Source: a virus
Lineage: Duplodnaviria; Heunggongvirae; Uroviricota; Caudoviricetes
Reading direction: 5' to 3' (one strand)
DNA: 64,000 nucleotides
IMG/VR virus record: IMGVR_UViG_3300033549_000065
Span: 64,001-128,000 of that record
A program made the translations under genes and the position numbers. How positions within the stretch are numbered: the first letter of the stretch is position 1; every line of letters starts with the position of its first letter. Shown here one piece after another: positions 119 through 56,181 of this stretch. The notes below the pieces were generated by a model. That model was not told where the DNA came from. It saw only the letters and a list, made by a program, of their open reading frames with translations, and searched no databases.

Positions 119-186
119 ATATTTAAATAAAGAATAAAAAAATTGTATATTTAAATATTAAATAATTTTATTACATATTTAAATAT
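119..186. promoter_or_regulatory. Triple array of palindromic ATATTTAAATAT box, 28 bp period
   Basis: Boxes start at 119 (ATATTTAAATAA), 147 and 175; the same motif and spacing recur at many intergenic sites. Confidence 0.8.
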
Positions 187-215
187 GAAGGAAAAGGATT
201 TAAAGGAGAAAAATA

Positions 216-419
216 ATGGCAATTGTAAAAAAGGATAATAAAAAAATTGAAATTTGTGGTTCTGGTACATTAATAAATGTTGATGGGAGCAGTTTTTCAG
301 TTGAAGATGAGAAAACAGGAGTTCAGACTCTTAACCTTTCTGATTTAATGCAATTCATAGGTAAAGAAATTAAATTTGCTATAAGTAATACCGAACAATC
401 GGTTGAGTTTTTAGACTAA
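216..419 (+). CDS. Small phage protein, possibly SPbeta YonK-like
   Basis: 67 aa ORF with SD (AAAGGAG); size and FxGKEI motif recall YonK from memory only. Confidence 0.4.
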   Translation: MAIVKKDNKKIEICGSGTLINVDGSSFSVEDEKTGVQTLNLSDLMQFIGKEIKFAISNTEQSVEFLD

Positions 420-642
420 GTGCTGGCTTTGAAACTAAGAGTAGAATCAGGGGTTTCTTTGTAAAAGTTTTTTAGAATAGTAGCAGTCTTACTGATTTAC
501 TGTTAACGCTTCTAAAATAGTCCTTTAACTACAGTTATAAAAGGTATATTACTAATTCAAATTAGGCACATGCAGCAAAACTACAAGCATAGAAGAATTC
601 TATATACAGGATTACCTATTTAGGTGACTTTAATAATTATAA

Positions 643-733
643 TATTAAGAGGTGAAAACCAACTTTTTATTAAGAGGTGTAAAAGCCAAAAAATCAAAAA
701 AGATTTCAAATTAATCAAAAAAGATTTCAAATT
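643..733. repeat. Two pairs of direct repeats in non-coding DNA
   Basis: TATTAAGAGGTG at 643 and 668; perfect tandem AATCAAAAAAGATTTCAAATT at 692-712 and 713-733. Confidence 0.85.
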
Positions 734-835
734 GTAGTGCCTAGCCCCCTTCCTTCACAGGAATAACCGATAACAAAGATGTTATTAACATACAGGTTAA
801 GGTTTGAGTATGATTACATATAAGTTGGTGGTAAT

Positions 836-1291
836 ATGAATTTTCCTGAATTTAAAAAAACTGAAAGTATGAAAGATGGAAATATTATCGAAGCTTATTA
901 TATTGATAATATTGAAGTTACTGAAAAGACTTATTATGCCTTATTATACGATAGAGAAGAAAGCAGTGATTGCATTCAGACAACGTCTGAACAAAGAAAA
1001 GCAGTCGAAAAGGCAATACATGCTGTAAAGCTCGAAGACTCAGAAGGTATTGAAGTTGAAGATATTGATGGAATTAAAGAGGATTATATTGAAAAATTTT
1101 TAAAAAAGCTTTTTCTCTGTAAGTATAGTGATGCTTATGATTTGCTTTATAAAGAACTTAATTATCATTACATACTTGGTTACTTAATAGGACAGAAAGA
1201 ATTAAATGAAACATTTTTGCAGGGAATGAATACGAATATTGGTATTCTGCAAGGCAAAGTCAACGAGATTAATCGTGGGCATGATATATAA
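836..1291 (+). CDS. Hypothetical acidic phage protein
   Basis: 151 aa ORF followed by a terminator; no motif recognised. Confidence 0.6.
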   Translation: MNFPEFKKTESMKDGNIIEAYYIDNIEVTEKTYYALLYDREESSDCIQTTSEQRKAVEKAIHAVKLEDSEGIEVEDIDGIKEDYIEKFLKKLFLCKYSDAYDLLYKELNYHYILGYLIGQKELNETFLQGMNTNIGILQGKVNEINRGHDI

Positions 1292-1304
1292 AATTAATTT
1301 AAAT

Positions 1305-1328
1305 TAAGCCGAAAGGCTTATTTTTTTT
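1305..1328 (+). terminator. Intrinsic terminator
   Basis: TAAGCC-GAAA-GGCTTA followed by T8. Confidence 0.85.
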
Positions 1329-1356
1329 GCTTTAAAAGGATTAAGAGGGTGAAAAA

Positions 1357-2274
1357 ATGGGACGTAAGAAGCAAGAAGCAATTTCTGATTCATTTATGAA
1401 AATTTGTACGCTATGCGGAAATAGAACAGCAGTCAAGTTTTTTTATATGAATCGTAAGTGGAAATCGGAATTCTATGCGGATTTATGGTGCAAGAAGTGT
1501 GTTAATAACTATATAACTAATGTTGACTCGTTAAAAGAATATTGCAGGCTTAATAAACGAGTGTACAGAGAAGATTTATTTATATCTGCTGATGAAACAG
1601 CAAAGCAGTATTTAGACATTGACATGGAATATGAAAAACTTAAAGTTGACGATAAATATATAGTTTACTGGAATAAAGTTAAAAAGATTTATTTTGGAAG
1701 AATGAATATGATAGGTTTCTATGAGTTCGCTGGAACTAATGAAGACGCAGAATTTACAACGAGAGAAAATGATATTTCAATAACTCAAACTACAATTAAT
1801 TTAGATGATATAGAAGCATCAAAAGGTTTGGGATTTGGCAAAAAGATTTATAGTAAGGTTTGGTGTGGGTTATACACTCAGAATGAGTTAGACTACCTTG
1901 AGGATTACTATAATGGACTAGCAAGAGATTTTAAGCTTGAAAATGCTGCATATATAGATTACGCAAAGAAGGTTTGTAAAGCCTCTCTTGCAATGGATAA
2001 GGCTTTTTCAGAAATGTGTAACGGGAAAATAGGCTCTGATAAGCGATATAAGGATTTTAAGGACATATTTGACCAATTATCAACAAGTGCTAAATTTGCT
2101 GAGAAAACCAGAACTGAAAATGACTCTGTTGGTTTTGGAAGCCTTGGCGAATTAATTAAACGTATGGAATCTACAGGGTTTCTACGAAAGAAGATTGAAT
2201 TTCCTCCTGATGAAATTGATAATATAATTAATGATTTTAGGTGGACATTAACATCTTTGGGAGAAGATGTCTAA
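1357..2274 (+). CDS. Putative terminase small subunit / packaging protein
   Basis: Directly upstream of and overlapping terL; N-terminal CxxC...CxxC, helical C-terminus. Confidence 0.55.
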   Translation: MGRKKQEAISDSFMKICTLCGNRTAVKFFYMNRKWKSEFYADLWCKKCVNNYITNVDSLKEYCRLNKRVYREDLFISADETAKQYLDIDMEYEKLKVDDKYIVYWNKVKKIYFGRMNMIGFYEFAGTNEDAEFTTRENDISITQTTINLDDIEASKGLGFGKKIYSKVWCGLYTQNELDYLEDYYNGLARDFKLENAAYIDYAKKVCKASLAMDKAFSEMCNGKIGSDKRYKDFKDIFDQLSTSAKFAEKTRTENDSVGFGSLGELIKRMESTGFLRKKIEFPPDEIDNIINDFRWTLTSLGEDV

Positions 2275-11527: not shown

Positions 11528-11567
11528 ATATTTAAATATCCAATAAATTTTCATCATATTTAAATAT
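11528..11567. promoter_or_regulatory. Double ATATTTAAATAT box, 28 bp period, upstream of the major tail gene
   Basis: Perfect boxes at 11528 and 11556. Confidence 0.8.
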
Positions 11568-11644
11568 TAAAAAGTCTCTTCTCTCATTCAGCGAAAGCTG
11601 ATTTTAAATAAACAATTTAAAAATTAAAATAAGGAGGAAAAACA

Positions 11645-12421
11645 ATGGCATTTTCAGGTAAAGGATTTATTATCGATGCTCCTCAAGTTCTGTTGCAGAC
11701 TACAAGTGGTAATTCTCATTTGGCTACAGCTACCCAAGGTACAATTACATTGGGTGGAGATAGTATAGAATTAGCTGGTGGTTGGTCATTCTACAACTTG
11801 GCACGTATTGATACTAAGAAAACTATAAACCTCAGTTTAACTGATGCTCAGTGGGACTATGACACATTATGGTTGACAAGCGGAGGTGCTAAAACCACTG
11901 CTGCCAGTTCATATTACTATTTCGGTACTGCATATACAGTTGCAACAACTACATACAGAATTACTTTAGAAGATAAAATCGTTGAAGCTAGTTCAGTTGA
12001 AATTAATGGTTACACAGATGTAACGGCAACTTCAACTACTCCTGCTGCTGCTGAATTCTGGCATTACACAAGTGGAACAGATACAATTCTTGAATTTAAC
12101 AGTGCTGCTGTTGGTTTGAAATTATATCCAAGCTATACCGTGGCAACAACTTCAACTACAAGCATATTAACAACACAGACCACAGACTTTGCTGCTGCTG
12201 GTTCTGCAATAGCTCAGTTTCCGATTTATTCCGACGCTGATGCAACAGATTCAACAATAATCGCATATGCTCAGTTGGAAATCTATAAAGTTAAAATCAT
12301 GCCCACGTATGAATTTAGCGGGTCTTATAAAACCGGAAGCAACTTTAAGCTAGATTTAGAGGGGCTTGACCCACGTAGAAGCGACTCAAACATGTGGCAA
12401 TTGATAGTTGTACCAGTTTAA
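11645..12421 (+). CDS. Major tail (tube) protein
   Basis: 258 aa Thr-rich beta protein, strong SD TAAGGAGG, position after neck genes. Confidence 0.7.
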   Translation: MAFSGKGFIIDAPQVLLQTTSGNSHLATATQGTITLGGDSIELAGGWSFYNLARIDTKKTINLSLTDAQWDYDTLWLTSGGAKTTAASSYYYFGTAYTVATTTYRITLEDKIVEASSVEINGYTDVTATSTTPAAAEFWHYTSGTDTILEFNSAAVGLKLYPSYTVATTSTTSILTTQTTDFAAAGSAIAQFPIYSDADATDSTIIAYAQLEIYKVKIMPTYEFSGSYKTGSNFKLDLEGLDPRRSDSNMWQLIVVPV

Positions 12422-12473: not shown

Positions 12474-12502
12474 TTGACAAATAAAAAATAAAGTGTTATA
12501 TT
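12474..12502 (+). promoter_or_regulatory. sigmaA-type promoter at the start of the glycan island
   Basis: TTGACA (12474-79), 17 bp spacer, TATATT (12497-502). Confidence 0.6.
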
Positions 12503-12503
12503 T

Positions 12504-12575: not shown

Positions 12576-13562
12576 ATGAAAAATGTATTAATACCTCCGA
12601 TTGTTGATTATCGTTTTTTAAAACAACTGCCACAGCAAATGGCTGAACAGTTTGCTAATAATGGCTATAAAGTACATTACTGCAATATGTACCCTGTCAA
12701 CAAAAGTGTGATTGAAGTTAGTGACAACCTTACTGTTTACAATGATTGTAAGGTATTTTTAAATTTATTTAAAAGTAAGAAAATGAAAATTGATATATTT
12801 TACAATACATGGGCAAAAAATTATAATTGGCTACCGACAATAAAGCCCGACATTACTATATATCATTCATGTGACATGTTCGAAGAATGGACAGCTTTTG
12901 AGCCATTAATAATGAAGCAATCAGACGTTGTGTTGGCTACATCACAGATGATTTACGATGAGAGAAGAAAAAATCATGATAACGTTCATCTAGTCAGAAA
13001 TGCTTGTAATGAAAGTATGATTAATGCTGAGTGGAAATGCCCAGAGGATATTGCTAAAATTGAAAATCCTATTGGATTATTTTCAGGAGCTATTGGAAAT
13101 TGGGTAAAGACGTTTTTATTAAGCGAAGCTTCAAATCATTGTAATACTGTATTGGTAGGTTCTGAGTTCGGAAAACAACGACCTCAAAAGATGATAAATC
13201 TTGGAATAAAAAAGCATTCAGATTTAGTAAATTATTATAATGCTTCAGATATTGGATTATTGCCTTTTAATGTTAATTCAACTGTCACACAAGCTGCAAA
13301 TCCTATAAAGATGTGGGAGTATCTTGCTTGTGGATTGCCAGTATTAGCTACTTCTTGGGTTGAAACAGATTTACCAGAACTTAAAGACGTTGTGTTTACT
13401 GCAAATGAAACAGATAAATTTATTGAAAAATTAAATATGCTGTTAAATCTTAATGAAAATGAGAAAAAACAAATTTCAGAAAAAGCAAAAGAAATAGCAA
13501 GGAATAATACATGGGAAAAAAGATTTAAACAAGTAGAGGATATAATTAAGAATTTAAAATAA
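12576..13562 (+). CDS. GT-B glycosyltransferase (GT4 / TuaH-like)
   Basis: C-terminal NPIKMWEYLACGLPVLAT signature. Confidence 0.85.
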   Translation: MKNVLIPPIVDYRFLKQLPQQMAEQFANNGYKVHYCNMYPVNKSVIEVSDNLTVYNDCKVFLNLFKSKKMKIDIFYNTWAKNYNWLPTIKPDITIYHSCDMFEEWTAFEPLIMKQSDVVLATSQMIYDERRKNHDNVHLVRNACNESMINAEWKCPEDIAKIENPIGLFSGAIGNWVKTFLLSEASNHCNTVLVGSEFGKQRPQKMINLGIKKHSDLVNYYNASDIGLLPFNVNSTVTQAANPIKMWEYLACGLPVLATSWVETDLPELKDVVFTANETDKFIEKLNMLLNLNENEKKQISEKAKEIARNNTWEKRFKQVEDIIKNLK

Positions 13563-13573
13563 TATTTAAATAC
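13562..13573. promoter_or_regulatory. Single ATATTTAAATAC box
   Basis: One-mismatch copy between GT genes. Confidence 0.45.
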
Positions 13574-18762: not shown

Positions 18763-18770
18763 CAATTTAT

Positions 18771-18797
18771 TATAAAGTGCACCGTGTGCACTTTATA
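18771..18797. terminator. Hairpin after the FkbM gene
   Basis: TATAAAGTGCAC-CGT-GTGCACTTTATA perfect inverted repeat; weak U-tract. Confidence 0.5.
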
Positions 18798-18829
18798 AAT
18801 CATATTTTTATACGCAATAAAAAAATCAT

Positions 18830-18841
18830 ATATTTAAATAT
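18830..18841. promoter_or_regulatory. ATATTTAAATAT box with a degenerate partner at 18802
   Basis: Perfect box at 18830; ATATTTTTATAC lies exactly 28 bp upstream. Confidence 0.6.
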
Positions 18842-18859: not shown

Positions 18860-19570
18860 ATGTCAGGAGAAAGAAATATTTTTGGAAGTTATACACAGAA
18901 TAAGGTTTTTATTGAAACTGGAAGTTATTATGGAGAGGGCATACAGAGGGCTTTAGACGTTGGATTTGAAAGAATAATCTCAATTGAAATAACACCAAAG
19001 TATTTTAATTTATGTCAAGATAAATTTAAAAACAATACAAATGTTGAAATTTTATTCGGTGATTCTGTCAAAATACTGCCGGGTTTATTGGAGAGTATAG
19101 ACGAACCAGTTACCCTTTGGTTAGATGCACATTACACAGAACCTTCAACTTTATTCAATGAAAATGGTTGGTGTCCAATACTTAATGAGCTTGAAATTAT
19201 AAAAGCTCATGCTCAGAAGTATAATGACATATTGCTCATAGATGATTTAAGAGTATGGGAAGAATCTTGTTATGCTTTTGACTGTGATGATATAAGGAAT
19301 AAATTAAAAGAAATTAACTCAAATGTAGCAATCACATATGATGATGGATTTGTACCCAATGATGTTTTAGTTGCAAAGTTTGAAAATAAATCAGAGTCAA
19401 AGTCGGTAAATATCGAACTTCAACAACCTATGAATGTAGGAATGGTCGAAGTTACAGCATGTACACCTTCAATTAAAGCCGAAAAAAGTCCTAAGAAATA
19501 TGCTTCAAAATCAGAAGAAAAAAGAATTAAATCGCAGATAGAAAAAAAGAAAAATAAGGTGCAAATATGA
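18860..19570 (+). CDS. Class I SAM-dependent methyltransferase-like protein
   Basis: [25 protein letters not shown] motifs. Confidence 0.7.
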
Positions 19571-21037: not shown

Positions 21038-21948
21038 TAGTATTAGGTAGTAATGGAATGGTTGGAAGTGCAATATATAAGCAGTTGCAGTTAGAAGGTT
21101 GTGAAAATGTCGTTGGTATTACTCATCAACAGAGAGAATTAGATGATGAAGTTCAAACAAAATGGTTATTCCGTGATGAGCAATTTGATTATGTATTTCA
21201 ATGTGCTGCTTTGGTCGGAGGATTATTTGCAAATAGTCAATTTCCAGTTGAGTTTTATCAACAGAATGCTCGGATTAATGCAAACGTATTGAAATATGCT
21301 CATGAAACTAATGTTAAAAAAGTTATGATATTAGGGAGTTCGTGCATTTATCCAAAACGTTGTAAACAGCCAATTACAGAAAGCGAATTATTATCTGGTA
21401 GGCTTGAAACCTCAAATGAAATGTATGCACTTGCCAAGATTTCAACTATAAAGCTTGCTCAAGCATACTGTAAAGAATATGGATGTAATTATATAAGTGT
21501 TATGCCATGCTCATTAATAGGCTCTAATGATAACTTTGACCCCAATACCTCTCATTTTATTCCCGGTATTATGAAAAGAATGGACGATGCCAAGGTTAAC
21601 GGAATTGGTAAAGTTACTATTATGGGTACTGGAACGCCTCGCAGAGAATTTTTATATGTTAATGATTTTGCAGAAATGGCAGTTTGGCTCATGAATAATT
21701 ATGACAGTCCAGAACTGATTAATATCGGTTCAGGTGTTGAATACAGTATTGCTGAGATAGCAGAAATGATAAAAGGGATTGTTGGGTACGAAGGGAAACT
21801 TGTGTTCGATAAGAAAGCTCCAAACGGAACGATGAGAAAGTTATTGGATGTAAGCAAGATGAATGCACTTGGATTAAGCTATAAGACTGAATTAAAAGAA
21901 GCAATTGAAAAATTATATGAGTGGTATATTAAAAATAATGATATTTAA
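21016..21948 (+). CDS. fcl: GDP-L-fucose synthase
   Basis: GSNGMVG, AALVGG, LGSSCIYP, YALAK, SHFIP, GTGTPRREFLYV. Confidence 0.95.
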   Translation: MEKTSKIIVLGSNGMVGSAIYKQLQLEGCENVVGITHQQRELDDEVQTKWLFRDEQFDYVFQCAALVGGLFANSQFPVEFYQQNARINANVLKYAHETNVKKVMILGSSCIYPKRCKQPITESELLSGRLETSNEMYALAKISTIKLAQAYCKEYGCNYISVMPCSLIGSNDNFDPNTSHFIPGIMKRMDDAKVNGIGKVTIMGTGTPRREFLYVNDFAEMAVWLMNNYDSPELINIGSGVEYSIAEIAEMIKGIVGYEGKLVFDKKAPNGTMRKLLDVSKMNALGLSYKTELKEAIEKLYEWYIKNNDI

Positions 21949-21980
21949 ATATTAAATAAAAAATTTATATATTTAAATAC
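21941..21980. promoter_or_regulatory. Double box, 28 bp period
   Basis: ATATTTAAATAT at 21941, ATATTTAAATAC at 21969. Confidence 0.8.
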
Positions 21981-25670: not shown

Positions 25671-25710
25671 ATATTTAAATATGCAAATAAAATAATGCGT
25701 ATTTAAATAT
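25671..25710. promoter_or_regulatory. Double box, 28 bp period
   Basis: ATATTTAAATAT at 25671, GTATTTAAATAT at 25699. Confidence 0.8.
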
Positions 25711-31227: not shown

Positions 31228-31262
31228 GAGGCATTATAGATTTTTCTATGATGCCTTTTTTT
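31228..31262 (+). terminator. Probable intrinsic terminator
   Basis: AGGCATTATAG / CTATGATGCCT imperfect stem plus T-run; boundaries approximate. Confidence 0.6.
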
Positions 31263-31268: not shown

Positions 31269-31336
31269 ATATTTAAATATTCAAAAAATTTTCATCATAT
31301 TTAAATATGGAATTTTTTATTTACATATTTAAATAT
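31269..31336. promoter_or_regulatory. Triple box, 28 bp period
   Basis: Perfect ATATTTAAATAT at 31269, 31297, 31325. Confidence 0.85.
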
Positions 31337-31358: not shown

Positions 31359-31817
31359 ATGGCAAAAAAGGAAAATAAGGAAATTGAAAAAATGGAAACT
31401 GAAGATTTCAAAGAAATGGTAGAAGCAATACATGAAAAGGTAACAGAAATCAAAGAAATTAAGAAAGAAGAAGAATCAGAGAAGGAAATTAAAGTTAAAG
31501 AAAACGAGATTTTACTTCCAACAGGTGTTGTTAAGTTAAAGCCAACTAAACTCAAATATTTTAAAAATGGTTTTTATAATAACTTTATGCTTGTTAAAAC
31601 GATGGGTATTAATGAAATTTTAAGGTATGATGATGGTGAGAGTGTATTATACGACTATCTTTGTGCTGCATTAGATATTGAAAAGAAGGAGATTACTTAT
31701 TTTGATGATTTAAGAACTGATACCATTTTTGAGTTAATTGAAAAGATGAACAAAATTAACAATATTAAAGATTCAGATTTTTTAAATCAGATGATAAGTC
31801 AGGAGGTGAAGGTATAA
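31359..31817 (+). CDS. Tail assembly chaperone (gpG-like)
   Basis: ATG 31359 after SD GGAGG; slippery TTTTTTA near the 3' end leads into the next ORF. Confidence 0.75.
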   Translation: MAKKENKEIEKMETEDFKEMVEAIHEKVTEIKEIKKEEESEKEIKVKENEILLPTGVVKLKPTKLKYFKNGFYNNFMLVKTMGINEILRYDDGESVLYDYLCAALDIEKKEITYFDDLRTDTIFELIEKMNKINNIKDSDFLNQMISQEVKV

Positions 31818-32104
31818 CATTGCAGAGGGGTTCTGCAATGATTGGCTTATACTGTGGTTATAGAGAGCTTGAGATTGATGATATGAGTTATAATTTTTAT
31901 AGAGATTTAATTGCGGAGATTGCTATAATGCTTCAGTATAAATCTGTAGTACATATTCTTGGGAGAGATTATGCAGATGAAAGTGTCTTTGAATATGTTA
32001 ATAAGTGCAATCCATTTATGGTTAATTTAAAAGAAGATGAACCGAAAAAGCATAAGAAACTTACTATGAAAGAGCTACAAGGTTCTGGATTATTAAAGAC
32101 TTAA
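31778..32104 (+). CDS. -1 frame extension of the chaperone (gpGT-like; ORF track 31820-32104)
   Basis: T-TTT-TTA at 31778-31784; the -1 frame is open from the slip site to the stop at 32104. Confidence 0.75.
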   Translation, partial: FFKSDDKSGGEGITLQRGSAMIGLYCGYRELEIDDMSYNFYRDLIAEIAIMLQYKSVVHILGRDYADESVFEYVNKCNPFMVNLKEDEPKKHKKLTMKELQGSGLLKT

Positions 32105-32298
32105 GTTTCCTCTGTATTTTTTTTCTTATGATTTAAATAAAGGCTTTCTATAAGCCTTGCAACACATTTATGTCTGCTTTTTTTAGCATACTTTTTCATT
32201 GAATTTAAAATATCCTTATCAAGAGTAGTATTAAATCTTACAACTTCTCTTGGTTTGGATATTTTTTTTCGATTTTTTTCACAATTCACACATATCAC
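32101..32298 (-). CDS. Small ribbon-helix-helix-like regulator, antisense to the late genes
   Basis: VRFNTTLDKDILNSMKKYAK...VARLIESL beta-alpha-alpha pattern; own promoter upstream. Confidence 0.55.
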   Translation of the reverse strand: MICVNCEKNRKKISKPREVVRFNTTLDKDILNSMKKYAKKSRHKCVARLIESLYLNHKKKNTEET

Positions 32299-32878: not shown

Positions 32879-35800
32879 ATGGCAAGTAGATATTGGGTAG
32901 GAAATGGTGGAAATTGGAGTGACAACGCAAATCATTGGGCTTCTACAAGCGGAGGAGCGCCCGGAGCTAGTAAACCAACTGCTTCTGACACAGTTTATTT
33001 TAATGCCAGTTCATTCAGTTCGGCAACTCAGACTGTTATACTAGATGAAGATGCAAATTGCCTTAGTATGATATGGACAGGAGTGACAAACACTCCTACT
33101 TTATATATAGGAGACGGAAGAACATTAAGCATAAATGGGACTGCTTGTACATTTATAGCAAATATGAATGTTACAATGGGCGCATCGACTATTGCAATGA
33201 ATGTAACAGCTACATTTGCAGGAGTCAGCAAAACAACTTATAATTCTTTAGAAATAAAAGACAATGCCGTAGTAACGATTACAGGTTCTAATACTTTTCA
33301 ATTATTAAAAATTAATGCAGGAGGAACTTGTAAAGTTACATCAGCTACAACTCAAACAATTACAGGTTTACAGTGTAGTGGAAATAGTAGTGTAGAAAAG
33401 GCATCTTTACAAGCTGTAACTGCTGGAAATGCCTTTTATTTAACTAAAGCACCAGATTCTGGTAGTATAACAATTGAGTATGCATCAATTAAAGATTGTT
33501 ATGCCAGTGTCGGAACGACATGGACAGCTAATAAATCAATAGATGCCACAGGAAATACAAATTGGATTATAAATGCATTAGAATCTAAACGTTATTGGGG
33601 TGGTGGAACTGGAACTTGGAATTCAACATCTACTACTAATTGGTTTGAAAGCGATAGAGTAACAAATGCATTAGTTCCAACAGCATTAGATGATGTAATA
33701 TTTGATGAAAATAGTTTTACTACTTCTTTACAAGAGGTAACTATAAAGGCAGATGTGTATTGTAATAATTTAGATTTTACAGGAGTAACTAATAATCCAA
33801 ATTTAAATTTTTTTTATGATTATATAGATTTATCTGTGTCAGGAAATGTAACATTAATTTCAAATATGACAACGGAAATTAGTTACAGTACGTTTATGAT
33901 AAGAATGTTAGGTGATAATAAAACATTTAACGGAGCAGGGAAAGAATTTCCGATATTATCTGTTGAGGGAACTCCTATAACCATAGTTGGAAATAATTCT
34001 TTTTTTGAATTAAGGTTAGCTAGTGATTCTGCAAAGACTGTGAATTTTACATCTGGTTCTACACAAACTATTACTCGTTTAGGTGTTTTGGGTACGAGTG
34101 GTAATGTTATATCGTTACGTTCCACTTCTGAAGGTTCTTTTTATAATATTGATTGTGTTATAAAAGTTACGTTTAACTATTGTAGTATAAAAGATTGTTA
34201 TAACATCGGTGAAAGTCAGTTTACAGCGTATAATAGTACTGATGTAAGTGGCAATAGTGGAATTACATTTTCTGCTGGAAGCCCTACATTTGGAGGATTT
34301 TATTTTGTACAATCAAAAGGTTCAAATTTTTTAAATAAATTAAGATACTTTGCTAGTGTTTCAGGAGGGGTTGGAGATAAATTAACTGAACCTACAGAAA
34401 CAGATGATGTATTTATAGATGAAAATTCTCTTTATGAAAATATAACAACTATGTATATTATGTCTGATAATAATTTTTATTGTAAAAATTTTGACTGTAC
34501 AGGATTGCAATATACAATAACTTCTATAACTACAGTTGGTAATGCTTTATATTGTTATGGCGATTTTATTGGAAATTCAAATTTAGTTAAAATAGCTGCT
34601 ATTAGCGCTTACTTTTATATGAAAGCTACAACATCGGGTCATAAGTTCACTACAAATGGAACAATATTTGAATATGTGAGATTTGATGGAATTGGAGGAG
34701 AATGGACTCTACAAGATAATATAAATGATTATACTGATGCATCATATATATATTTCATAAATGGTACAGTGAATACTAATGATAAAAATGTTTCAGTAAA
34801 AACAACAATCAATGTAGCAGCAGGAGCAACATTAAACTTAGGAAATAGTACAATTCAGGCATCAAATTATATTGTAAATTCAGCATCTACGATTAATGCA
34901 GAAACATCAAAATTAATAATGAGGTCAACAACGACAGCGACTTTCAATGGAGGAGGACAAAGATACTATGACCTAGAAATAAATACTACAACAGCTACGA
35001 TTGTAGGAGATAATATTTTTAGGGATATAAAAATAGCTTCAGGTAAAACAGTTAAATTTACAGCAGGCTCAAACACTACCGTTTCATCATTATCTGGAAC
35101 AGGTGTAAGTGGTAGTTTAGTAACAATAAAATCTACAGTAGATGGTTCATATTATACCATAACATCAACATCAGCAGAAATTGAAGCAAATTGGTATTCT
35201 ATAAGGGATTGCCACGCCACAGGTGGAGCGACATTTTATGCGTATGACAGCACAGATGTAAGTGGTAATACTGGGTGGAATTTTAACACAGGCAGATATT
35301 GGGTAGGCAATAGCGGAAATTGGACTGATGATTATTGGTCTTTAACTTCTGGTGGAGCTGCCGGAGCAAGTAAACCAACAAAATATGAAAATGTTTATTT
35401 TGATGCAAATTCATTTAATGGTGTCGGACAAACTATCGCACTTATAGGAAATATAGAGTGTAGGAAACTAGATTTTACAGGTGTTGCAAACAATCCAACT
35501 TTACTCATGTATGCAGCTACGCTGTTTCAGATATATGGTAGTTTAACGCTCGTAGCTGGTATGACAGTAGATAATACAGGTTACACGGGTTATATAGATT
35601 TTGAATCCTTAATTAGAGGTAGAACAATAACGACTGGTGGAAAAACTTTACCAGATTTGGCTTTCAGTGGTTTAGGTGGAAGTTACACTTTGCAAGATGA
35701 TTTAACGTGTGGTGATTTTTATATTTGGTGTGGTGATATTGACACAAACGATAAAACTATAAACTGTATTGATTTTACCGCTGATGATACACAAAGTAGA

Positions 35801-36967
35801 TTGCTTACATTAGGTGCATCTGCTATTAATGTAAGCGGTAATTGGGATGTTACAGGAAATACTAATTTAATTTTAGATTGTGGAACATCAACAATTACTA
35901 TGACAGGAAATACAAAAACCTTTGATGGCAATGGAAAAACCTTTTATAAGGTTGAATTACAAGGTACTCCAACAATTGTTGCTGGTGACAATATAATTTC
36001 GGAATTAAAATTAACCGCTGATAAGACAACTCAATTTACGGCAGACAGTATTCAAACAATTGGAACATTATCTGGTAATGGCACGGATGGTCATTTAATA
36101 ATAATGGAATCGACTTCTAGTGGCAATGAGTGGTATATTACTTCTCATACTGCTTTAAACAGTGTTGATTATTATTCAATAAAAGACAGTACGGTTATAG
36201 GAGAAGGCTTATTTCAAGCAGTGGATTCAACTGATGTTAGCGGTAATACTGGGTGGGAATTTCTTTTTGTGCCTCCTGTTAATGCAGTTGTTGGAACTGC
36301 TATTGCTGAAGGTATTAGTCCAAGTATTACCGCTGCTATTGGTATTACTGTTAATGCAGTTGTTGGAAACTGTACTGCCGATGGAATAGCGCCAACAGTA
36401 GAAACAACAAGCGGAGGAAATGTGACAGTTGAAACTACCGTCGGTGAAGCTACTGCCGATGGAGTAATACCCGTTATTGGAACGGGAATGACCGTTATTT
36501 GCGTTGTTGGGACTGCTACAGCAGAAGGTACGACTCATACAATTACAACCTCTATAATCCTTACTGCGGTAACAGGAAACGCTATTGCGGTATTTCCTTT
36601 ACCTTCTATGGATTCAGATGCTACTATTTCTGCTATTGCTTGTCAAGCTACCGCTGATGGTATAGTACCAACAGTAATATTAAATATTAACTTAATTCCT
36701 ACTGAAGCGAACGCTTCAGCCTTATTCATAGAGCCTAGTTTAGAATCAGGAGTTACTTTAGCGATTACAAGCATTGGAGAGGCAATTGCGGGTATGCCGA
36801 CTACGGGTATGGAAATATGGACAGGTAAATTTTATCAATGTTGGGTGTCTGGTACAGAAAGAGATATTAAATTTACAGAATCGGAACGAGAAGTAACATT
36901 GTTAGAAGAAGAGAGAGACTTAACTATAACATTATTATCAATATCAAAGAATGAAGTGGTGATTTAA
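32879..36967 (+). CDS. Large repetitive adhesin / fibre-like structural protein
   Basis: 1362 aa; four modules beginning RYW.G..G.W....W...SGG..GA..PT..D.V.FD.NS; C-terminal AVVG.A.A.G..P repeats. Confidence 0.7.
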   Translation: MASRYWVGNGGNWSDNANHWASTSGGAPGASKPTASDTVYFNASSFSSATQTVILDEDANCLSMIWTGVTNTPTLYIGDGRTLSINGTACTFIANMNVTMGASTIAMNVTATFAGVSKTTYNSLEIKDNAVVTITGSNTFQLLKINAGGTCKVTSATTQTITGLQCSGNSSVEKASLQAVTAGNAFYLTKAPDSGSITIEYASIKDCYASVGTTWTANKSIDATGNTNWIINALESKRYWGGGTGTWNSTSTTNWFESDRVTNALVPTALDDVIFDENSFTTSLQEVTIKADVYCNNLDFTGVTNNPNLNFFYDYIDLSVSGNVTLISNMTTEISYSTFMIRMLGDNKTFNGAGKEFPILSVEGTPITIVGNNSFFELRLASDSAKTVNFTSGSTQTITRLGVLGTSGNVISLRSTSEGSFYNIDCVIKVTFNYCSIKDCYNIGESQFTAYNSTDVSGNSGITFSAGSPTFGGFYFVQSKGSNFLNKLRYFASVSGGVGDKLTEPTETDDVFIDENSLYENITTMYIMSDNNFYCKNFDCTGLQYTITSITTVGNALYCYGDFIGNSNLVKIAAISAYFYMKATTSGHKFTTNGTIFEYVRFDGIGGEWTLQDNINDYTDASYIYFINGTVNTNDKNVSVKTTINVAAGATLNLGNSTIQASNYIVNSASTINAETSKLIMRSTTTATFNGGGQRYYDLEINTTTATIVGDNIFRDIKIASGKTVKFTAGSNTTVSSLSGTGVSGSLVTIKSTVDGSYYTITSTSAEIEANWYSIRDCHATGGATFYAYDSTDVSGNTGWNFNTGRYWVGNSGNWTDDYWSLTSGGAAGASKPTKYENVYFDANSFNGVGQTIALIGNIECRKLDFTGVANNPTLLMYAATLFQIYGSLTLVAGMTVDNTGYTGYIDFESLIRGRTITTGGKTLPDLAFSGLGGSYTLQDDLTCGDFYIWCGDIDTNDKTINCIDFTADDTQSRLLTLGASAINVSGNWDVTGNTNLILDCGTSTITMTGNTKTFDGNGKTFYKVELQGTPTIVAGDNIISELKLTADKTTQFTADSIQTIGTLSGNGTDGHLIIMESTSSGNEWYITSHTALNSVDYYSIKDSTVIGEGLFQAVDSTDVSGNTGWEFLFVPPVNAVVGTAIAEGISPSITAAIGITVNAVVGNCTADGIAPTVETTSGGNVTVETTVGEATADGVIPVIGTGMTVICVVGTATAEGTTHTITTSIILTAVTGNAIAVFPLPSMDSDATISAIACQATADGIVPTVILNINLIPTEANASALFIEPSLESGVTLAITSIGEAIAGMPTTGMEIWTGKFYQCWVSGTERDIKFTESEREVTLLEEERDLTITLLSISKNEVVI

Positions 36968-37255: not shown

Positions 37256-37295
37256 ATATTTAAATATGAAAGAAAATTTTTGTGTATTTAAATAT
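37256..37295. promoter_or_regulatory. Double box, 28 bp period, upstream of tape measure
   Basis: ATATTTAAATAT at 37256, GTATTTAAATAT at 37284. Confidence 0.8.
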
Positions 37296-37308: not shown

Positions 37309-37335
37309 GGGCGGCTTAAGAGCTGCCCTTTTTTT
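37309..37335 (+). terminator. Intrinsic terminator
   Basis: GGGCGGC-TTAAGA-GCTGCCC plus T7. Confidence 0.75.
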
Positions 37336-43886: not shown

Positions 43887-43932
43887 TTGAGAGGGAATTT
43901 CTTTATATTTTTAAATGCTTAAAATTTTTATT

Positions 43933-43972
43933 ATATTTAAATATGGATAAAATTTTTGGCGTATTTAAATAT
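43933..43972. promoter_or_regulatory. Double box, 28 bp period
   Basis: ATATTTAAATAT at 43933, GTATTTAAATAT at 43961. Confidence 0.8.
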
Positions 43973-44017
43973 AAAGAAATTCCCATTTTTATTAATAACG
44001 GAAATGAGGGAAAAATT

Positions 44018-47766: not shown

Positions 47767-49137
47767 ATGGCAAGACCTAGTCCTTTTGCATGGGATTATA
47801 CAAGAACTTCGGGGATGGTTTACACAACAAACAAAATAACTGCAACTGAGTGGATTCGGTTGCAGACAAATATAAATGATGTAAGGGCATATGTTGGATT
47901 ATCAGCATATGCTTTTACAACTCCTGTTGCTGGTAATGATTTTACTGCTGCTTTGTGGAATGAAGCTATTGATGCTTTAGATGATATGAGCGCTTATTAC
48001 ACAGAGACATGTCCTAGTACTCATGTTGCTGGCGATAGAGTAATGGCCTCTTATTTTGAAGCTATTAAAGATTGCTTAAATTCTGTATCTATGAGTTTTG
48101 CTCAATTCAGCTTTAAAACAAATAATACAAGTACGGGAAGTTCTGGCTCTACCAGTGTTAGACTACCTTTGACTTCAGGAGGTACATATAATTTTATTGT
48201 GGATTGGGGAGACGGAAACACCGACACAATAACGGTTTGGAATCAAGCTGAAAGAACGCATGTATATTCAGTGGCTGGAACTTATACTGTTAAAATTACA
48301 GGTGTTTGTATTGGATGGATTTTTAATAATACAGGAGATAAATTAAAATTGCTTGATGTTCAGCAATGGGGAGAAGAATTTAGATTAGAAGAAGTTATTG
48401 GAGGAGGATATTTTTATGGTTGTGAAAATATGCAAGTGTCTGCTTCTGATTCTTTGGATTTAACAGGATTAGATTCTCTTATATTAGCTTTTACAGACTG
48501 TGATGCTTTAACAACAGATGCTTCTATTGCGAATATTGATGTGTCAACTGTTACAAGTATGCAATCAATATTCGCTTTAAGTGACAATTTTAATGTTGAT
48601 TTGTCCTCTTGGGATGTCTCTAATGTTACAAATATGAGTAATATGTTTAATTCTTGTACTTCTTTTAATCAAAATTTAAATTCTTGGAATGTAGGAAGCG
48701 TAAGTGATTTTGAATATATGTTTTATTTTTGCACTTCTTTTAACCAAAATTTAGCAAGTTGGGACACTTCAAGTGCTACTACTATGCAAAGTATGTTTCA
48801 GAGTTGTTCGTCATTTAACCAAAACATTTCGGGTTGGAATACATCAAACGTTACAAATATGAGGTATATGTTTCAATATGCTTATGCTTTTGAACAAAAT
48901 CTTGGCACTTGGGACATAAGTAATGTTACAGACATGACATATATGTTTAGAGGTGTTACTCTTCAAACAGCAAATTATGATGCTCTGTTAATAGGTTGGG
49001 GTGCTCAATCCGTTCAAAGCGGAGTAGTTTTTCATGGGGGTAATAGTAAATATACAGCAGGAGGAGTAGCAGAAGCAGCAAGAACACATTTAATAAGTGT
49101 ACATGGATGGGTAATTACAGATGGTGGAGCAGTATAA
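47767..49137 (+). CDS. DUF285 / BspA-like repeat protein, candidate receptor-binding protein
   Basis: About six 25 aa repeats W[DN][VT]S.VT.M..MF..C..FNQ.L..; PKD-like VDWGDG...H.Y..AG.Y.V. Confidence 0.85.
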   Translation: MARPSPFAWDYTRTSGMVYTTNKITATEWIRLQTNINDVRAYVGLSAYAFTTPVAGNDFTAALWNEAIDALDDMSAYYTETCPSTHVAGDRVMASYFEAIKDCLNSVSMSFAQFSFKTNNTSTGSSGSTSVRLPLTSGGTYNFIVDWGDGNTDTITVWNQAERTHVYSVAGTYTVKITGVCIGWIFNNTGDKLKLLDVQQWGEEFRLEEVIGGGYFYGCENMQVSASDSLDLTGLDSLILAFTDCDALTTDASIANIDVSTVTSMQSIFALSDNFNVDLSSWDVSNVTNMSNMFNSCTSFNQNLNSWNVGSVSDFEYMFYFCTSFNQNLASWDTSSATTMQSMFQSCSSFNQNISGWNTSNVTNMRYMFQYAYAFEQNLGTWDISNVTDMTYMFRGVTLQTANYDALLIGWGAQSVQSGVVFHGGNSKYTAGGVAEAARTHLISVHGWVITDGGAV

Positions 49138-49142: not shown

Positions 49143-49210
49143 ATATTTAAATATGAAATATTTTAAACTCGTATTTAAATATTAAAATTTTTTCGGAGGT
49201 ATTTAAATAT
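49143..49210. promoter_or_regulatory. Triple box, 28 bp period, before the lysis cassette
   Basis: Boxes at 49143, 49171, 49199; the third sits between an SD and an ATG. Confidence 0.85.
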
Positions 49211-49376
49211 GGGAAAAATGAAAAATTCACAAAAAAAATCAGAGTTAAAAAAATCAAGAGTTGCTTTAAGTAGCGAGTGTGAAAAGTGCATGGGCTGTGA
49301 AAAAGGCAAAAAATATTTAGAAAACTTCAATGTTAAGCATGAAGGTAAAGGCGTTGTTTGTTTTAAATTAAGTTAA
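49209..49376 (+). CDS. 55 aa basic Cys-containing protein (not in ORF track)
   Basis: SD GGAGGT at 49195, ATG 49209; MGKMKNSQKK...CEKCMGC...VVCFKLS. Confidence 0.6.
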   Translation: MGKMKNSQKKSELKKSRVALSSECEKCMGCEKGKKYLENFNVKHEGKGVVCFKLS

Positions 49377-51191: not shown

Positions 51192-51291
51192 GTCTAAAAT
51201 TTAAAAGAATATTGCAATAAACCGAGAAATATAATAAAATAATATTTAAATAAATAAATTTGTCAATATATTCATAAAAGTAGGTGATTAT

Positions 51292-51579
51292 TTGAATGGA
51301 ATGGATATGTTAAGGATTTTAAAAGAATTCACAAGTGAAACAAAAGCACTTGAAGAAAAGACATTGCAAGTATTTGGAGAAAATTTACGCTTAGTAAGAA
51401 AAGAAAAAGGGATTACTCAAGAGGAACTTGCAACTCTTATAGGACTTACAAGAACAAGCGTTACAAATATGGAGTCGGGAAAACAAGACACTCCGATTTC
51501 AACGATGGTAAAAATAACTAGAGCATTAGGATGTGACATCATTGACTTATTTCCAAACAGCAAGGAGTATATAAAATGA
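51292..51579 (+). CDS. XRE-family HTH regulator
   Basis: LRLVRKEKGITQEELATLIGLTRTSVTNMESGK. Confidence 0.9.
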   Translation: MNGMDMLRILKEFTSETKALEEKTLQVFGENLRLVRKEKGITQEELATLIGLTRTSVTNMESGKQDTPISTMVKITRALGCDIIDLFPNSKEYIK

Positions 51580-52526: not shown

Positions 52527-52964
52527 TTGGATTGTGAAATCGGGGAAAAGGTAACTCTTATATATGATAATAAGCTTGTAGAAGGATTTATACAAGACTA
52601 TGACATTGAATCGGCAGAATATAGAGTAAGTGACATGGAAACAGAAGATGAAATCACTAAAGTAAAATATTCTGTTTGGATTTATTATGACATGATTTTA
52701 AAAGGTGGACTTGATGAAATAAATTGTAATTGCTGTGAAAAATTAAAAATATTAATTAAAAATATTTCAGAAGAGTTGAAAGACATTATTGTAACAATGA
52801 ATTCAGATGATAAAAAGCTGAGACAAATTTTAGAAAAAATAGAGGAGGTAAAAAATGAAAACTATTGCTGTAGTGAATCAAAAGGGCGGTGTGGGCAAGA
52901 CGACAACTGCGATAAACCTAGCGAGTTACTTAGCTCAAATGGGGAAACGTACAGTTCTACTTGA
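52527..52964 (+). CDS. Hypothetical protein
   Basis: Good SD (GGAGG); 3' end overlaps parA by 110 nt. Confidence 0.5.
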   Translation: MDCEIGEKVTLIYDNKLVEGFIQDYDIESAEYRVSDMETEDEITKVKYSVWIYYDMILKGGLDEINCNCCEKLKILIKNISEELKDIIVTMNSDDKKLRQILEKIEEVKNENYCCSESKGRCGQDDNCDKPSELLSSNGETYSST

Positions 52965-53676
52965 TTTTGATGCACAAGGTAACTCTACTAGAGGGTTAGG
53001 AGTAAACTTTGAACACACTATTTATGAATGCTTGACATCAGATGATATGTTGGAGGAATATATATGCGATACTGAAATTAAAAATCTACATGTTATTCCA
53101 GCAAATATTTTATTGGCAAATGCAGAGATTGAGCTTAGTACAAGCATAGGGAGGGAAACAATTTTAAAAGAAAAACTGGAAAGTTTAGAAAAAGCATATG
53201 AAATTGATTATATGATAATTGACTGTAATCCTGCTCTGGGATTATTTACCGTTAATGCTCTTACTTGTTCAAATGAAATAATAATACCTATCTCTGCCGG
53301 AATATTTGCTTTAGAAGGTATTGAGCAGTTAATTAATTTAATAAATATTGTAAAAAAGAAGCTTAATCCAACATTAAATATTTTAGGAGTGCTTGTAACT
53401 AAATATGACGCTCGAACAAATTTATCAAAGGAATTTCACACAGAGTTAAAAGAAATTTTTGACAAACAAGTGTTCGAAACTGTAATACGTTCAAACATAA
53501 AGTTAAATGAGGCTCAATCAGCAGAATTGCCAATAGGACTTTATGATAATAAATGTGCAGGAGCGAAGGAATATTTAGATTTAGCAAAGGAAGTAATTGA
53601 TAGGATGGAGGGGAAGAGTTATGCCAAGAAGACAAGTGCCAAAAGCACAGGTAGAAAAAAAAGTTGTAAGAGGTAA
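52855..53676 (+). CDS. parA: ParA / Soj partition ATPase
   Basis: NQKGGVGKTTT deviant Walker A, DFDAQGN, IIDCNP, IRSNIKLNEA. Confidence 0.95.
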   Translation: MKTIAVVNQKGGVGKTTTAINLASYLAQMGKRTVLLDFDAQGNSTRGLGVNFEHTIYECLTSDDMLEEYICDTEIKNLHVIPANILLANAEIELSTSIGRETILKEKLESLEKAYEIDYMIIDCNPALGLFTVNALTCSNEIIIPISAGIFALEGIEQLINLINIVKKKLNPTLNILGVLVTKYDARTNLSKEFHTELKEIFDKQVFETVIRSNIKLNEAQSAELPIGLYDNKCAGAKEYLDLAKEVIDRMEGKSYAKKTSAKSTGRKKSCKR

Positions 53677-53965
53677 GGCAGGAAGGTTCGAATCAACCAA
53701 AGTAACAAGCAAAGGAATACTGGATGGCCTTAAGGCCGTTAATGAAGAGCAAGTTAAAACTCCAAAAAAGACTACTAAAACAAAAATGATTGAACCTATT
53801 TCATTAGAAGACAAAAAGGCCAGAACCTTTATGCTCTGCCTTAAGCAGACAAAAGAATTATTTGAATTACTATCTCAAAGAAAAATGATAAGATTTACCG
53901 CTGATTACTCAGAAATAGTCAGAGATGCAATTGATGAATATTATAAGAAACATAAGGAGGGTTGA
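53621..53965 (+). CDS. Putative RHH centromere-binding partner of ParA
   Basis: Basic flexible N-terminus plus C-terminal RTFML...YSEIVRDAIDEY; directly after parA. Confidence 0.6.
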   Translation: MPRRQVPKAQVEKKVVRGKAGRFESTKVTSKGILDGLKAVNEEQVKTPKKTTKTKMIEPISLEDKKARTFMLCLKQTKELFELLSQRKMIRFTADYSEIVRDAIDEYYKKHKEG

Positions 53966-54215: not shown

Positions 54216-54217
54216 CT

Positions 54218-54836: not shown

Positions 54837-54883
54837 TTTATCACCCTATATTTAATTATTATGATATAAGAAAACTAGGATAA

Positions 54884-54917
54884 ATAAAACAGGAGGGTCT
54901 ATCCTTTGCCCCCCTGT
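54884..54917 (-). terminator. Terminator downstream of the tRNA-like modules
   Basis: On the - strand: ACAGGGGGG...CCCTCCTGT plus TTTATTT. Confidence 0.7.
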
Positions 54918-54974
54918 CATTTGATATATATAATAATATCACCTGTACTGCTTTTTGTCATTAACGGCATTTAA

Positions 54975-55078
54975 TCTACTGTTTTAACTCTCAGTGCGTT
55001 CGCTTTACCACTTAGCTACAATCCCATATTGGAGGGATTGGTAGGACTCGAACCTACGATAACGCAAATGACAGTAGA
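54975..55078 (-). ncRNA. Circularly permuted tRNA-like module B (Y RNA / YrlA-like topology)
   Basis: - strand order: T-arm GTAGG-TTCGAGT-CCTAC, acceptor 3' CAATCCC-T-CCA, ATAT, acceptor 5' GGGATTG, D-arm GCT-AAGTGGTAA-AGC; closed by TGCGTT/AACGCA and TCTACTGT/ACAGTAGA. Confidence 0.8.
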
Positions 55079-55135
55079 GGTCGAGATAATGAACCGCAGT
55101 TTTATGAACTTGTTGAGGTACAACTTAAACTTGTC

Positions 55136-55225
55136 AACGTATGCGTCTGCCATTTCGCCACTCTCTGTTAAAGTCAGAGAGGAAGGGGTTGAACCTTCAA
55201 CGGCTATTTGCCGTTTAAATACGTT
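55136..55225 (-). ncRNA. Circularly permuted tRNA-like module A with long variable arm
   Basis: - strand: AACGTAT, V-arm ACGGC-AAATA-GCCGT, T-arm GAAGG-TTCAACC-CCTTC, CTCTCTG-ACTTTAA-CAGAGAG, D-arm GCG-AAATGGCAGA-CGC, ATACGTT. Confidence 0.8.
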
Positions 55226-55290
55226 TTAATTAAATTCAACTTAAACTTCAACTTGCCTCTGGTATATAAACGCTTTTTCAAGCGGAAATA

Positions 55291-56028
55291 TTATGACAAT
55301 ATAAAATCAAAAATCTTCTTTCCAACGTACATGTCGTCAACCTCAGTAGTATTAGCTAGTTCTCTCGCTGATTTAACAGCAACAGTGAATTTCCCAAGCT
55401 TTTCTAAGATTTCTTTCTTTCTCTCTGCTGGCATTGCGCCTGTTGACTTAATTGTGTCCCAATATCCAATAACCTCATCAAATGAAGCCAATTCAACTTG
55501 TGCTCTGTGCTCTTTAGTAGCTGGTGACAGCTCTATAGGCTTGTGAATTTTCTTTGTCTTATGAGTGACAGAAGCCTCTGTCTTATAAATTCCAGCTTTT
55601 GTGTCTTCTACCCAATCCTCTGACTCATCCTGTATAGGTATGTTTTCAATAAATGAACGGATGTCATGGATTTCTTTCTCTAAAAACAACAAAAATGGTG
55701 TCGGTACATCATTGAGGATAAGTTCTCCATCAATTACGATATCAGCATAAGCTCGGGTATTACCCCAATCCTTAGTAGCTGTGATATCCAACAAGCTTGT
55801 TTTTGCTCTTGTGAAGTTCATCAGATGTTCAATAGCGCTCATTTGAACCTTTTTCTTTTCATTCGGGAATTCGTCACCTTCCTCATCCTTTTTACGGTAA
55901 TTTTTCATGAAGCCATTGAATAAATCTGGCTTGTTTGAAATTCTATGAAGAGCAGTGATTTCTTCATGTACGCGATTTTTTACTTCTTTTTCAATCGCTA
56001 TTACTTGACATACTTTTTTGTTTGGCAT
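55291..56028 (-). CDS. Conserved helical protein of unknown function
   Basis: 245 aa; motifs QVIAIEK, TATKDWGN, P..FLLFLEK, H.AQV resemble a widespread uncharacterised bacterial family (recalled, not searched). Confidence 0.75.
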   Translation of the reverse strand: MPNKKVCQVIAIEKEVKNRVHEEITALHRISNKPDLFNGFMKNYRKKDEEGDEFPNEKKKVQMSAIEHLMNFTRAKTSLLDITATKDWGNTRAYADIVIDGELILNDVPTPFLLFLEKEIHDIRSFIENIPIQDESEDWVEDTKAGIYKTEASVTHKTKKIHKPIELSPATKEHRAQVELASFDEVIGYWDTIKSTGAMPAERKKEILEKLGKFTVAVKSARELANTTEVDDMYVGKKIFDFILS

Positions 56029-56068
56029 AACGCACTTCCTTTCTCAACTTAAAATTAAGATTTCCTTA

Positions 56069-56097
56069 ATCCTAACATACTAATTTTAAATTGTAAA
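56069..56097 (-). promoter_or_regulatory. sigmaA promoter for the 245 aa gene
   Basis: - strand TTTACA, 17 bp spacer, TGT-TAGGAT. Confidence 0.6.
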
Positions 56098-56113
56098 TAG
56101 AAAAAATAAATAA

Positions 56114-56181
56114 ATATTTAAATAGAATATTATTTGTTTTTATATTTAAATATTAAATAAATTTTCTTCATATTTAAATAT
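56114..56181. promoter_or_regulatory. Triple box, 28 bp period
   Basis: Boxes at 56114 (ATATTTAAATAG), 56142, 56170. Confidence 0.85.

Follow-up and report, generated by a model that had tools for sequence, protein, structure and literature searches.

Short palindromic boxes in a 28-bp register as candidate operators at transcription-unit boundaries of a 128-kb phage genome

The DNA considered here, a stretch of 64,000 nucleotides hereafter called the window, comprises positions 64,001 to 128,000 of the IMG/VR virus record IMGVR_UViG_3300033549_000065 (Caudoviricetes) and is the second half of a complete record of 128,062 bp with terminal repeats and 32% G+C. Its intergenic regions contain copies of a 12-bp palindrome, ATATTTAAATAT, which we call the box, set one after another at a step of exactly 28 bp, and the box recurs in the other half of the genome. 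These boxes are very probably protein-binding sites of some kind, and the reading that we infer and tentatively favour is that they are operators for a two-fold symmetric DNA-binding protein of the phage, most probably a small dimer of the Cro/CI (XRE) type, whose effect would be repression, the boundaries of transcription units being silenced or insulated. The sites, with their symmetry, phasing and placement and their lack in relatives, are observed directly, whereas binding by a protein, the identity of that protein and repression as the outcome are inferred.

Exact copies of ATATTTAAATAT number 15 in the window, whereas 100 shuffles gave an expectation of 0.13 and never more than two; matches to the degenerate form RTATTTAAATAY number 24. 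A scan for two boxes at a 28-bp step, that is, with a 16-bp gap (up to two mismatches tolerated), returned 13 instances in the window and none in the shuffles, far more than chance would give, and all 13 neighbour distances below 120 bp are exactly 28. An earlier reading of the window made from its letters alone (the sequence-only reading) had listed the positions of these boxes, all of which hold, and had described their spacing as constant, as it is in the window, and AAATTTT as common in the spacers; this word is present in 6 of the 13 spacers and the shorter AATTT in 10. Three decayed copies, matching at 9 of 12 bases and still in register, lie at 18802, 31213 and 43905, and the boxes of the window are 12 to 77 nt from a start codon. 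Genome-wide, the 10-bp core of the box, TATTTAAATA, occurs 100 times, and 92 of these copies fall in non-coding DNA, which, counted as all DNA outside our own open reading frame (ORF) calls, makes up 11.6% of the genome. There are 35 box clusters, 22 of them with at least two boxes and the largest with 8, 11 and 13, and 43 of the 65 neighbour distances of up to 120 bp are exactly 28, the remainder being mostly 29-31, 36-38 or about 56.

The box itself is no less regular. All ten bases of the core are invariant in the 100 copies, and the degeneracy outside it is mirrored, A or G at position 1 going with T or C at position 12, with a tendency to C or T in the flank before the box and to G or A in the flank after it; the asymmetry of these flanks is independent of gene direction. 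The spacers are AT-rich and diverse, while the boxes and the 28-bp step stay constant. Mirrored conservation points to a two-fold symmetric reader of double-stranded DNA, a fixed step combined with free spacers to a constraint on the relative placement of such readers, and diverse spacers alongside perfect boxes to selection on the boxes; a short palindromic site conserved with two-fold symmetry is also what marks operators of the Cro/CI (XRE) type. CRISPR arrays, in which repeats of about 24-48 bp alternate with unique spacers of similar length, were ruled out, the repeat here being 12 bp, the spacer 16 bp and the units numbering 2-13 at 35 loci. The sequence-only reading had proposed cooperative binding of a dimeric protein over a phage-wide regulon, with late-transcription factor, repressor or distributed centromere as possible roles. 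Its symmetric dimeric reader is borne out indirectly, by the palindrome, the mirrored degeneracy, the fixed step and the intergenic placement; the late-factor and centromere roles are not.

The boxes (Table 1) mark most of the boundaries between gene blocks and are often found beside terminators. In the late region (the window), nearly every gap of at least 70 bp holds an array, with no sigma70-type promoter accompanying it, and the boxes are the sole recurrent motif in these gaps; matches to the sigma70 consensus are no more frequent in the window than in shuffles. Terminator-like hairpins are enriched about 2.5-fold in the first 40 kb of the window, and five hairpins lie within 25 bp of box sites, three of them ahead of a site (18830, 31269, 51242) and two behind one (11556, 37284). 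In the early region, outside the window at genome 36-49 kb, a terminator comes first, then the array and then a canonical TTGACA-17-TATAAT promoter, whose -35 element is 11 to about 115 bp downstream of the nearest box. Early and late units thus both carry boxes, and the arrays are denser upstream of the sigma70-type early promoters in the other genome half; equally good promoters of this type at genome 49.6-63 kb have none. A few boxes lie on a promoter or just beyond it: the one at 51242 covers the predicted start site of the + strand promoter TTGCAA-17-TAAAAT of an operon for XRE, ParA and ribbon-helix-helix (RHH) proteins, another at genome 24664 covers -10/+1 of a TTGACA promoter, and two at genome 24203-24242 lie at about +15 to +54. 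The sequence-only reading had placed the arrays upstream of major units, which is broadly right for the tape measure, Dit, lysis and glycan genes, although "at unit boundaries" describes them better.

Table 1. Box arrays and genes discussed in the text. Positions are those of the window unless given as genome positions; the multi-box arrays of the window are numbered A1 to A9.
Feature	Position	Strand	Setting
A1, three boxes at 119 (last base A), 147 and 175, 28-bp step	119..186		29 nt 5' of the ATG at 216
A2, two exact boxes at 11528 and 11556	11528..11567		followed by a small terminator-like hairpin (11588-11601) and a virion structural gene at 11645
Single box, ATATTTAAATAC	13562..13573		overlaps the stop codon of the glycan-island gene lying upstream
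Decayed box at 18802 (9/12) and exact box at 18830	18802..18841		terminator-like hairpin (18770-18798) just 5'; ATG at 18860, 18 nt on
A3, two boxes at 21941 and 21969	21941..21980		ends 12 nt before the ATG at 21993, abutting the ribosome-binding site
A4, two boxes at 25671 and 25699, the second beginning with G	25671..25710
A5, three exact boxes at 31269, 31297 and 31325	31269..31336		strong terminator hairpin (31228-31257) directly 5'; ATG at 31359, 22 nt on
A6, two boxes at 37256 and 37284	37256..37295		followed by a terminator hairpin (37309-37328) and the tape measure gene at 37365
A7, decayed box at 43905 and two boxes at 43933 and 43961	43905..43972		between the tape measure gene and a Dit-like gene
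A8, three boxes at 49143, 49171 and 49199	49143..49210		before the lysis block
Near-consensus box at 51242-51253 (last base A) within a promoter region	51212..51266
A9, three boxes at 56114, 56142 and 56170	56114..56181		between two - strand genes, upstream of a weak TTTACA-17-TAGGAT site for a DUF7873 gene
XRE-family helix-turn-helix gene	51292..51579	+	heads the operon that also holds ParA and RHH; predicted best candidate binder
ParA/Soj-type ATPase gene	52855..53676	+	AAA_31 at 5.7e-60
Predicted ParG/omega-like RHH centromere-binding protein gene	53621..53965	+	basic N-terminal tail, RHH-like C-terminus; downstream of ParA
Small Arc-like RHH gene, weak candidate	32101..32298	-	own control region without a box
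XerC/XerD-like tyrosine recombinase gene	genome 25800-26678	-	sole integrase-family (PF00589) protein in the genome

In the favoured reading, dimers would load on neighbouring boxes in a fixed register of 28 bp, or 2 2/3 helical turns, so that each array would form an ordered nucleoprotein block at a transcription-unit boundary. A box overlapping a promoter core would act by promoter occlusion, arrays inside or between operons would act as roadblocks or insulators, and the blocks together would keep the entire genome silent, either during a prophage state resembling that of a plasmid, as is probable, or as part of a global switch. Should all the sites be read by one protein, the state of the 128-kb phage genome would be set by that one factor, and the strict register would point to an ordered protein-DNA assembly not yet described.

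The most promising binder is one of the three XRE proteins of the phage, the only one of them with a box in its own promoter, so that a site lies in the predicted control region of the candidate regulator's own gene; the other two are encoded at genome 11324 and 56710. This protein, encoded from 51292, was among three candidates named by the sequence-only reading and is the best of them, having a near-consensus box over the promoter start site and a parallel in actinobacteria; the RHH protein encoded at 32101 has no box near it, and the one at 53621 appears to go with other repeats, as described below. The parallel comes from a scan of one genome per species in 185,579 bacterial species, with word and 28-bp step fixed, which found no triple array at all and box pairs in only 19 genomes. 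Thirteen of the 19 pairs are in Corynebacteriales of 61-67% G+C (Mycobacteroides, Mycolicibacterium, Mycobacterium sp., Hoyosella and Nocardia), where two copies of GGTATTTAAATACC stand at a distance of exactly 28 bp, their spacers varying by species. In all 13 the arrangement is the same, a divergent 88-aa XRE gene (HTH_31, 7.8e-10) on one side of the pair and an M24 methionine aminopeptidase gene on the other (loci L144-L147, L150, L152, L153, L155-L158, L160 and L161; for example L145:1365-1404), and a literature search found no paper on this Corynebacteriales XRE/methionine aminopeptidase locus. As the search fixed both word and step, the finding of pairs is unsurprising in itself; it shows that the sole recurrent bacterial setting of the pair is beside a small, putatively autoregulatory XRE gene, and hence that proteins of this kind can accompany palindrome and step, which favours an XRE-type binder in the phage.

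The locus and the phage arrays have in common the core GTATTTAAATAC, two copies 28 bp apart, a variable spacer and an adjoining small XRE-family gene. They differ in that there is one pair per GC-rich chromosome, that the actinobacterial protein has no detectable specific similarity to the phage XREs and no phage homologue was found for it, and that binding there is itself putative. A bolder extension, which we consider rather unlikely as it stands, is that an undescribed class of small helix-turn-helix proteins reads GTATTTAAATAC and assembles only at the 28-bp (2 2/3 turn) step, serving a single autoregulatory pair in actinobacteria and about 100 phage sites as a chromatin-like insulator or silencer. 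Because the actinobacterial locus is found in culturable, genetically tractable bacteria, the spacing rule is directly testable there.

Several observations weigh against the operator reading. In their recognition helices the three phage XRE proteins are unlike the actinobacterial XRE, which makes the parallel an analogy and not a homology, and the XRE and RHH proteins of the window have no close homologues. Most early arrays stand off the promoter, 16 to 160 bp upstream of its -35 element, which is unusual for simple occlusion, and with a step of 28 bp adjacent dimers would face different sides of the helix. A temperate or plasmid lifestyle is a supposition here. Lastly, no sigma70-type promoters were found for the late operons, and A5 follows a strong terminator, so that transcription may restart inside the array, which favours a promoter or activator function.

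Such a function is the most familiar alternative: the boxes would be late promoters or activator sites, used by a small sigma-like factor of the T4 gp55 type or by a dimeric activator, one box serving as the -10 element and its neighbour 28 bp upstream as the site of the activator. Apart from the boxes there is no recurrent motif and no sigma70-type promoter in the late gaps, re-initiation is plausible at A5, which lies between its terminator and a ribosome-binding site, and the box contains TTTAAATA, one base off TATAAATA, the strand-specific 8-bp late promoter motif of T4 that is read by gp55 and stands a fixed short way upstream of late starts, with 17-18 bp from the end of one box to the TAAATA/AAATAT of the next. 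A perfect palindrome, however, would fire both ways, and the would-be -35 positions around the boxes are unconserved, unlike those of a sigma70-type promoter with its -35 and -10 hexamers 16-18 bp apart. Terminators follow directly after A2 and A6, A3 is too near its ATG (12 nt), the last box of A8 stands between ribosome-binding site and ATG, ordinary early promoters have arrays of as many as 13 boxes upstream, and the genome has no match to sigma70 region 2.

The strongest argument comes from relatives of the phage that have the same late genes and lack both the box and any comparable high-copy motif. Five were found in IMG/VR by way of the capsid protein (68-75% identity); their late proteins are 50-75% identical, and one of them, a 99.8-kb contig, has head, replication and part of the glycan genes in common with the phage at 30-75% identity. 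The sequence-only reading had proposed a motif scan of the full genome and of related phages, and where the genome gave 100 cores in 35 clusters, the relatives gave one copy or none, with no other high-copy word and with short, box-free gaps at the orthologous boundaries. In SPbeta, too, the box is not enriched, and no such palindrome lies upstream of yonR. The five relatives show the arrays to be an addition in this lineage and not the group's basic late-transcription signal. With arrays denser at early promoters, terminators and start codons adjoining them and relatives free of boxes, the late-transcription role once suggested for them is unlikely to be the main one, and late promoters are, on the whole, an unlikely explanation, which keeps some weight because late promoters were not found and because of the position of A5.

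A distributed centromere, in which ParA and its RHH partner would use the boxes as dispersed partition sites in the manner of the sopC-like sites of phage N15 or the omega sites of pSM19035, was likewise considered. The window contains the two genes in the order of a type Ib partition system, ParA and then a small RHH gene, with no repeat array beside them, and tandem palindromes of fixed period resemble sopC of the F plasmid. The RHH protein encoded at 53621, however, is 40% identical over 85 aa to a protein encoded downstream of ParA (54% identity) on a Rep3 plasmid-like contig (L216), where AGAGTAAA direct repeats lie in the parA promoter. A better match to an RHH centromere is also present in the phage genome itself, at 48814-48985 (outside the window), where a gene-free region adjoining the 13-box array holds 14 repeats AGGT(T/A)(T/A)A of AGGTTAAA-type in one orientation with a period of 8-9 bp. 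The RHH protein more probably reads this AGGTTAAA-type array than the palindromes, and the array is the more likely partition site, by which the distributed centromere, and the sequence-only reading that had put it forward together with this RHH protein, loses its partner. Since about 100 sites in 35 clusters also far exceed what partition needs, we regard a centromere function of the boxes as very unlikely, and the palindromes are hereby separated from the probable partition site.

ParA, the RHH protein and the AGGTTAAA-type repeats resemble a partition system of the plasmid type, which suggests that the prophage state is plasmid-like. At genome 48050-48400, the same gene-free region contains about 15 copies of a TGTAGTGTT-like repeat of 9-10 bp together with GGTATGGTATG repeats, which may be origin iterons. 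The genes of a maintenance type, whose presence speaks for the favoured reading, are ParA with its RHH partner, the XerC/XerD-like recombinase, which could serve integration or multimer resolution, and an XRE protein 37% identical to YonR of SPbeta over 60 aa.

A third possibility is that the boxes are sites of a host nucleoid or transcription factor, or architectural DNA (alternating TTTAAA and AAAATTTT), by which units are insulated. The same 10-bp core occurs 14-46 times in each of four contigs of an unrelated phage clade from other metagenomes (L026, L062, L089 and L112), where almost every small gene is preceded by one to five copies set between a terminator and a TTGACA-17-TATAAT promoter, and many spacers of the late region of our phage are centred on an A-tract/T-tract junction. 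The contigs have several small proteins in common with one another and none with this phage, their flanks are unlike those of the phage and their boxes are 26-43 bp apart. The presence of TATTTAAATA in them could reflect a shared host factor or a chance match produced by an exact-word search. Against a host factor there is the bacterial scan, with no triple array in 185,579 species and pairs in only 19, and the strict invariance of ten bases exceeds what DNA shape requires; we consider this explanation quite unlikely. Elsewhere in IMG/VR, a search for paired boxes returned only AT-rich tandem repeats of giant viruses and one for triple boxes with variable gaps mostly simple tandem repeats, while one 137-kb contig had 11 cores against 5 for a control word. 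A protein apparently common to L062 and the phage was examined as a possible regulator and rejected, being an amidoligase-like enzyme.

The boxes might, finally, be a selfish or recombination cassette spread by copy and paste, like the PeSL elements of T4 or miniature inverted-repeat transposable elements, with no dedicated binder. The arrays are indeed insertions relative to the compact gaps of the relatives, a 12-bp inverted repeat flanks A7, and a few in-register copies have decayed; the other arrays, on the other hand, have neither terminal inverted repeats nor target duplications, and perfect boxes amid diverse spacers imply selection on the boxes. This origin seems highly improbable.

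Searches for other DNA-binding proteins were mostly negative. Homologues of YopR and YonO were not found in the genome (by tblastn against SPbeta for yopR), neither sigma70 region 2 nor HU gave a genome-wide family match, and a weak match to sigma70 region 4 lies at genome 34933-35022. Pfam, PHROGs and Atlas scans of about 60 proteins, among them about 20 of the early region and 20 ORFs of the L062 and L089 contigs, gave no further DNA-binding protein, and homologue searches with the RHH and XRE proteins matched each only to itself. A binder of integrase fold resembling MrpR (discussed below) was unsupported, as the only PF00589 protein, the XerC/XerD-like recombinase, is catalytically intact, with R, K, HxxR and Y all retained, and a box-free relative has it as well.

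RNA was considered as well. Hairpins between neighbouring boxes fold with z values of -3 to -7, and the spacer ends show no co-variation; for this reason, and because the early arrays lie in untranscribed gaps, the hairpins were treated as a by-product and not as the function. A7 is enclosed by a 12-bp inverted repeat, GGGAATTTCTTT (43896-43907) and AAAGAAATTCCC (43973-43984), followed by a T-run, and 43896-43984 folds at -33.5 kcal/mol (z -6.8). In A8 the last box has GGAGG (49194-49198) on one side and on the other the ATG (49209) of a 55-aa ORF at the head of the lysis block, and pairing of boxes 2 and 3 in RNA could hide the ribosome-binding site and start of this ORF (49194-49211). Two promoter-like sites may be mentioned beside these. 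On the - strand, a strong TTGACA-16-TATTAT site (51239-51266), its spacer filled by the box at 51242, points back at the lysis genes and may yield an antisense transcript; the best sigma70-type match in the late-region gaps, TTGACA-17-TATATT with TG (12474-12502), lies at the start of the glycan island in a box-free gap.

The phage, large and uncultivated, is, judging by its genes, a siphophage distantly related to SPbeta. The large terminase, portal, 2173-aa tape measure, Dit, Tal and amidase endolysin are all distantly SPbeta-like, and the genome further encodes a PolIII-alpha-type polymerase, RNR, RecJ, a DnaB-like helicase and 13 tRNA genes, the - strand carrying the genes from about 120 kb across the ends of the record to 40.5 kb and the + strand those from 41 to 118 kb. 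Between tail genes and tape measure lies a 1362-aa ORF (window 32879-36967) with no Pfam or PHROGs match. Relatives of the endolysin and ParA are mostly from Bacillota, where the host probably belongs, although this is only a lead; the portal protein has only weak matches, to Bacillus phages, and megablast and blastn of the window and of one array against phage records gave no match. Pieces of the phage, short and of low depth, are present in four lake-water DNA runs, and no RNA run was listed.

Among described systems, the arrays come near to several and coincide with none. The stoperators of mycobacteriophage L5 and other Cluster A phages are bound by the repressor gp71, are asymmetric 13-14-bp sites mostly single and in one orientation, and can block transcription passing through them. 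The phage resembles them in having dozens of identical short sites in small intergenic gaps of early and late regions (35 clusters, 92 of 100 cores intergenic), and differs in that its box is a perfect palindrome in strict 28-bp arrays, not an asymmetric site of one orientation, and that its repressor is putative. In SPbeta, the 15-bp motif SPBRE occurs at about ten promoters and is bound by MrpR (YopR), a master repressor of integrase fold without the catalytic residues (PMC10516654). Both are large siphophages with a repeated intergenic element and distantly related terminase, tape measure, Dit, Tal and endolysin; the present phage, in contrast, has no YopR homologue, and its integrase-family protein, being catalytically intact, lends no support to a binder of the MrpR type.

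Global repression through dispersed sites is also exercised by KorB, with 12 single OB sites on RK2 and IncC as ParA, and by omega, with contiguous 7-bp heptads on pSM19035. Like these, the phage is a ParA-encoding replicon with identical symmetric or repeated sites dispersed at varied distances from promoters, but its sites number about 100 at a 28-bp step and its ParA partner probably reads another repeat. The sopC region of F consists of tandem 43-bp units, each with a short palindrome read by a large ParB-type helix-turn-helix protein, and sopC-like sites are dispersed in phage N15; fixed-length tandem units with a short palindrome and dispersal over a phage genome are thus shared, whereas there are far more loci here and no ParB-type (ParBc) partner was seen, this family not having been searched genome-wide. 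The PeSL cassettes of T4, in which an early promoter and stem-loop repeats flank small genes, are likened to the cassettes of terminator, boxes and promoter by which nearly all small early genes are flanked here and in the clade of L089; they differ in lacking a separate phased palindrome array and in being absent from late operons. Taken together, the arrays most likely represent a familiar type of control, unusual in its regularity and set apart from stoperators, SPBRE, KorB, omega and sopC by their strict phasing and copy number.

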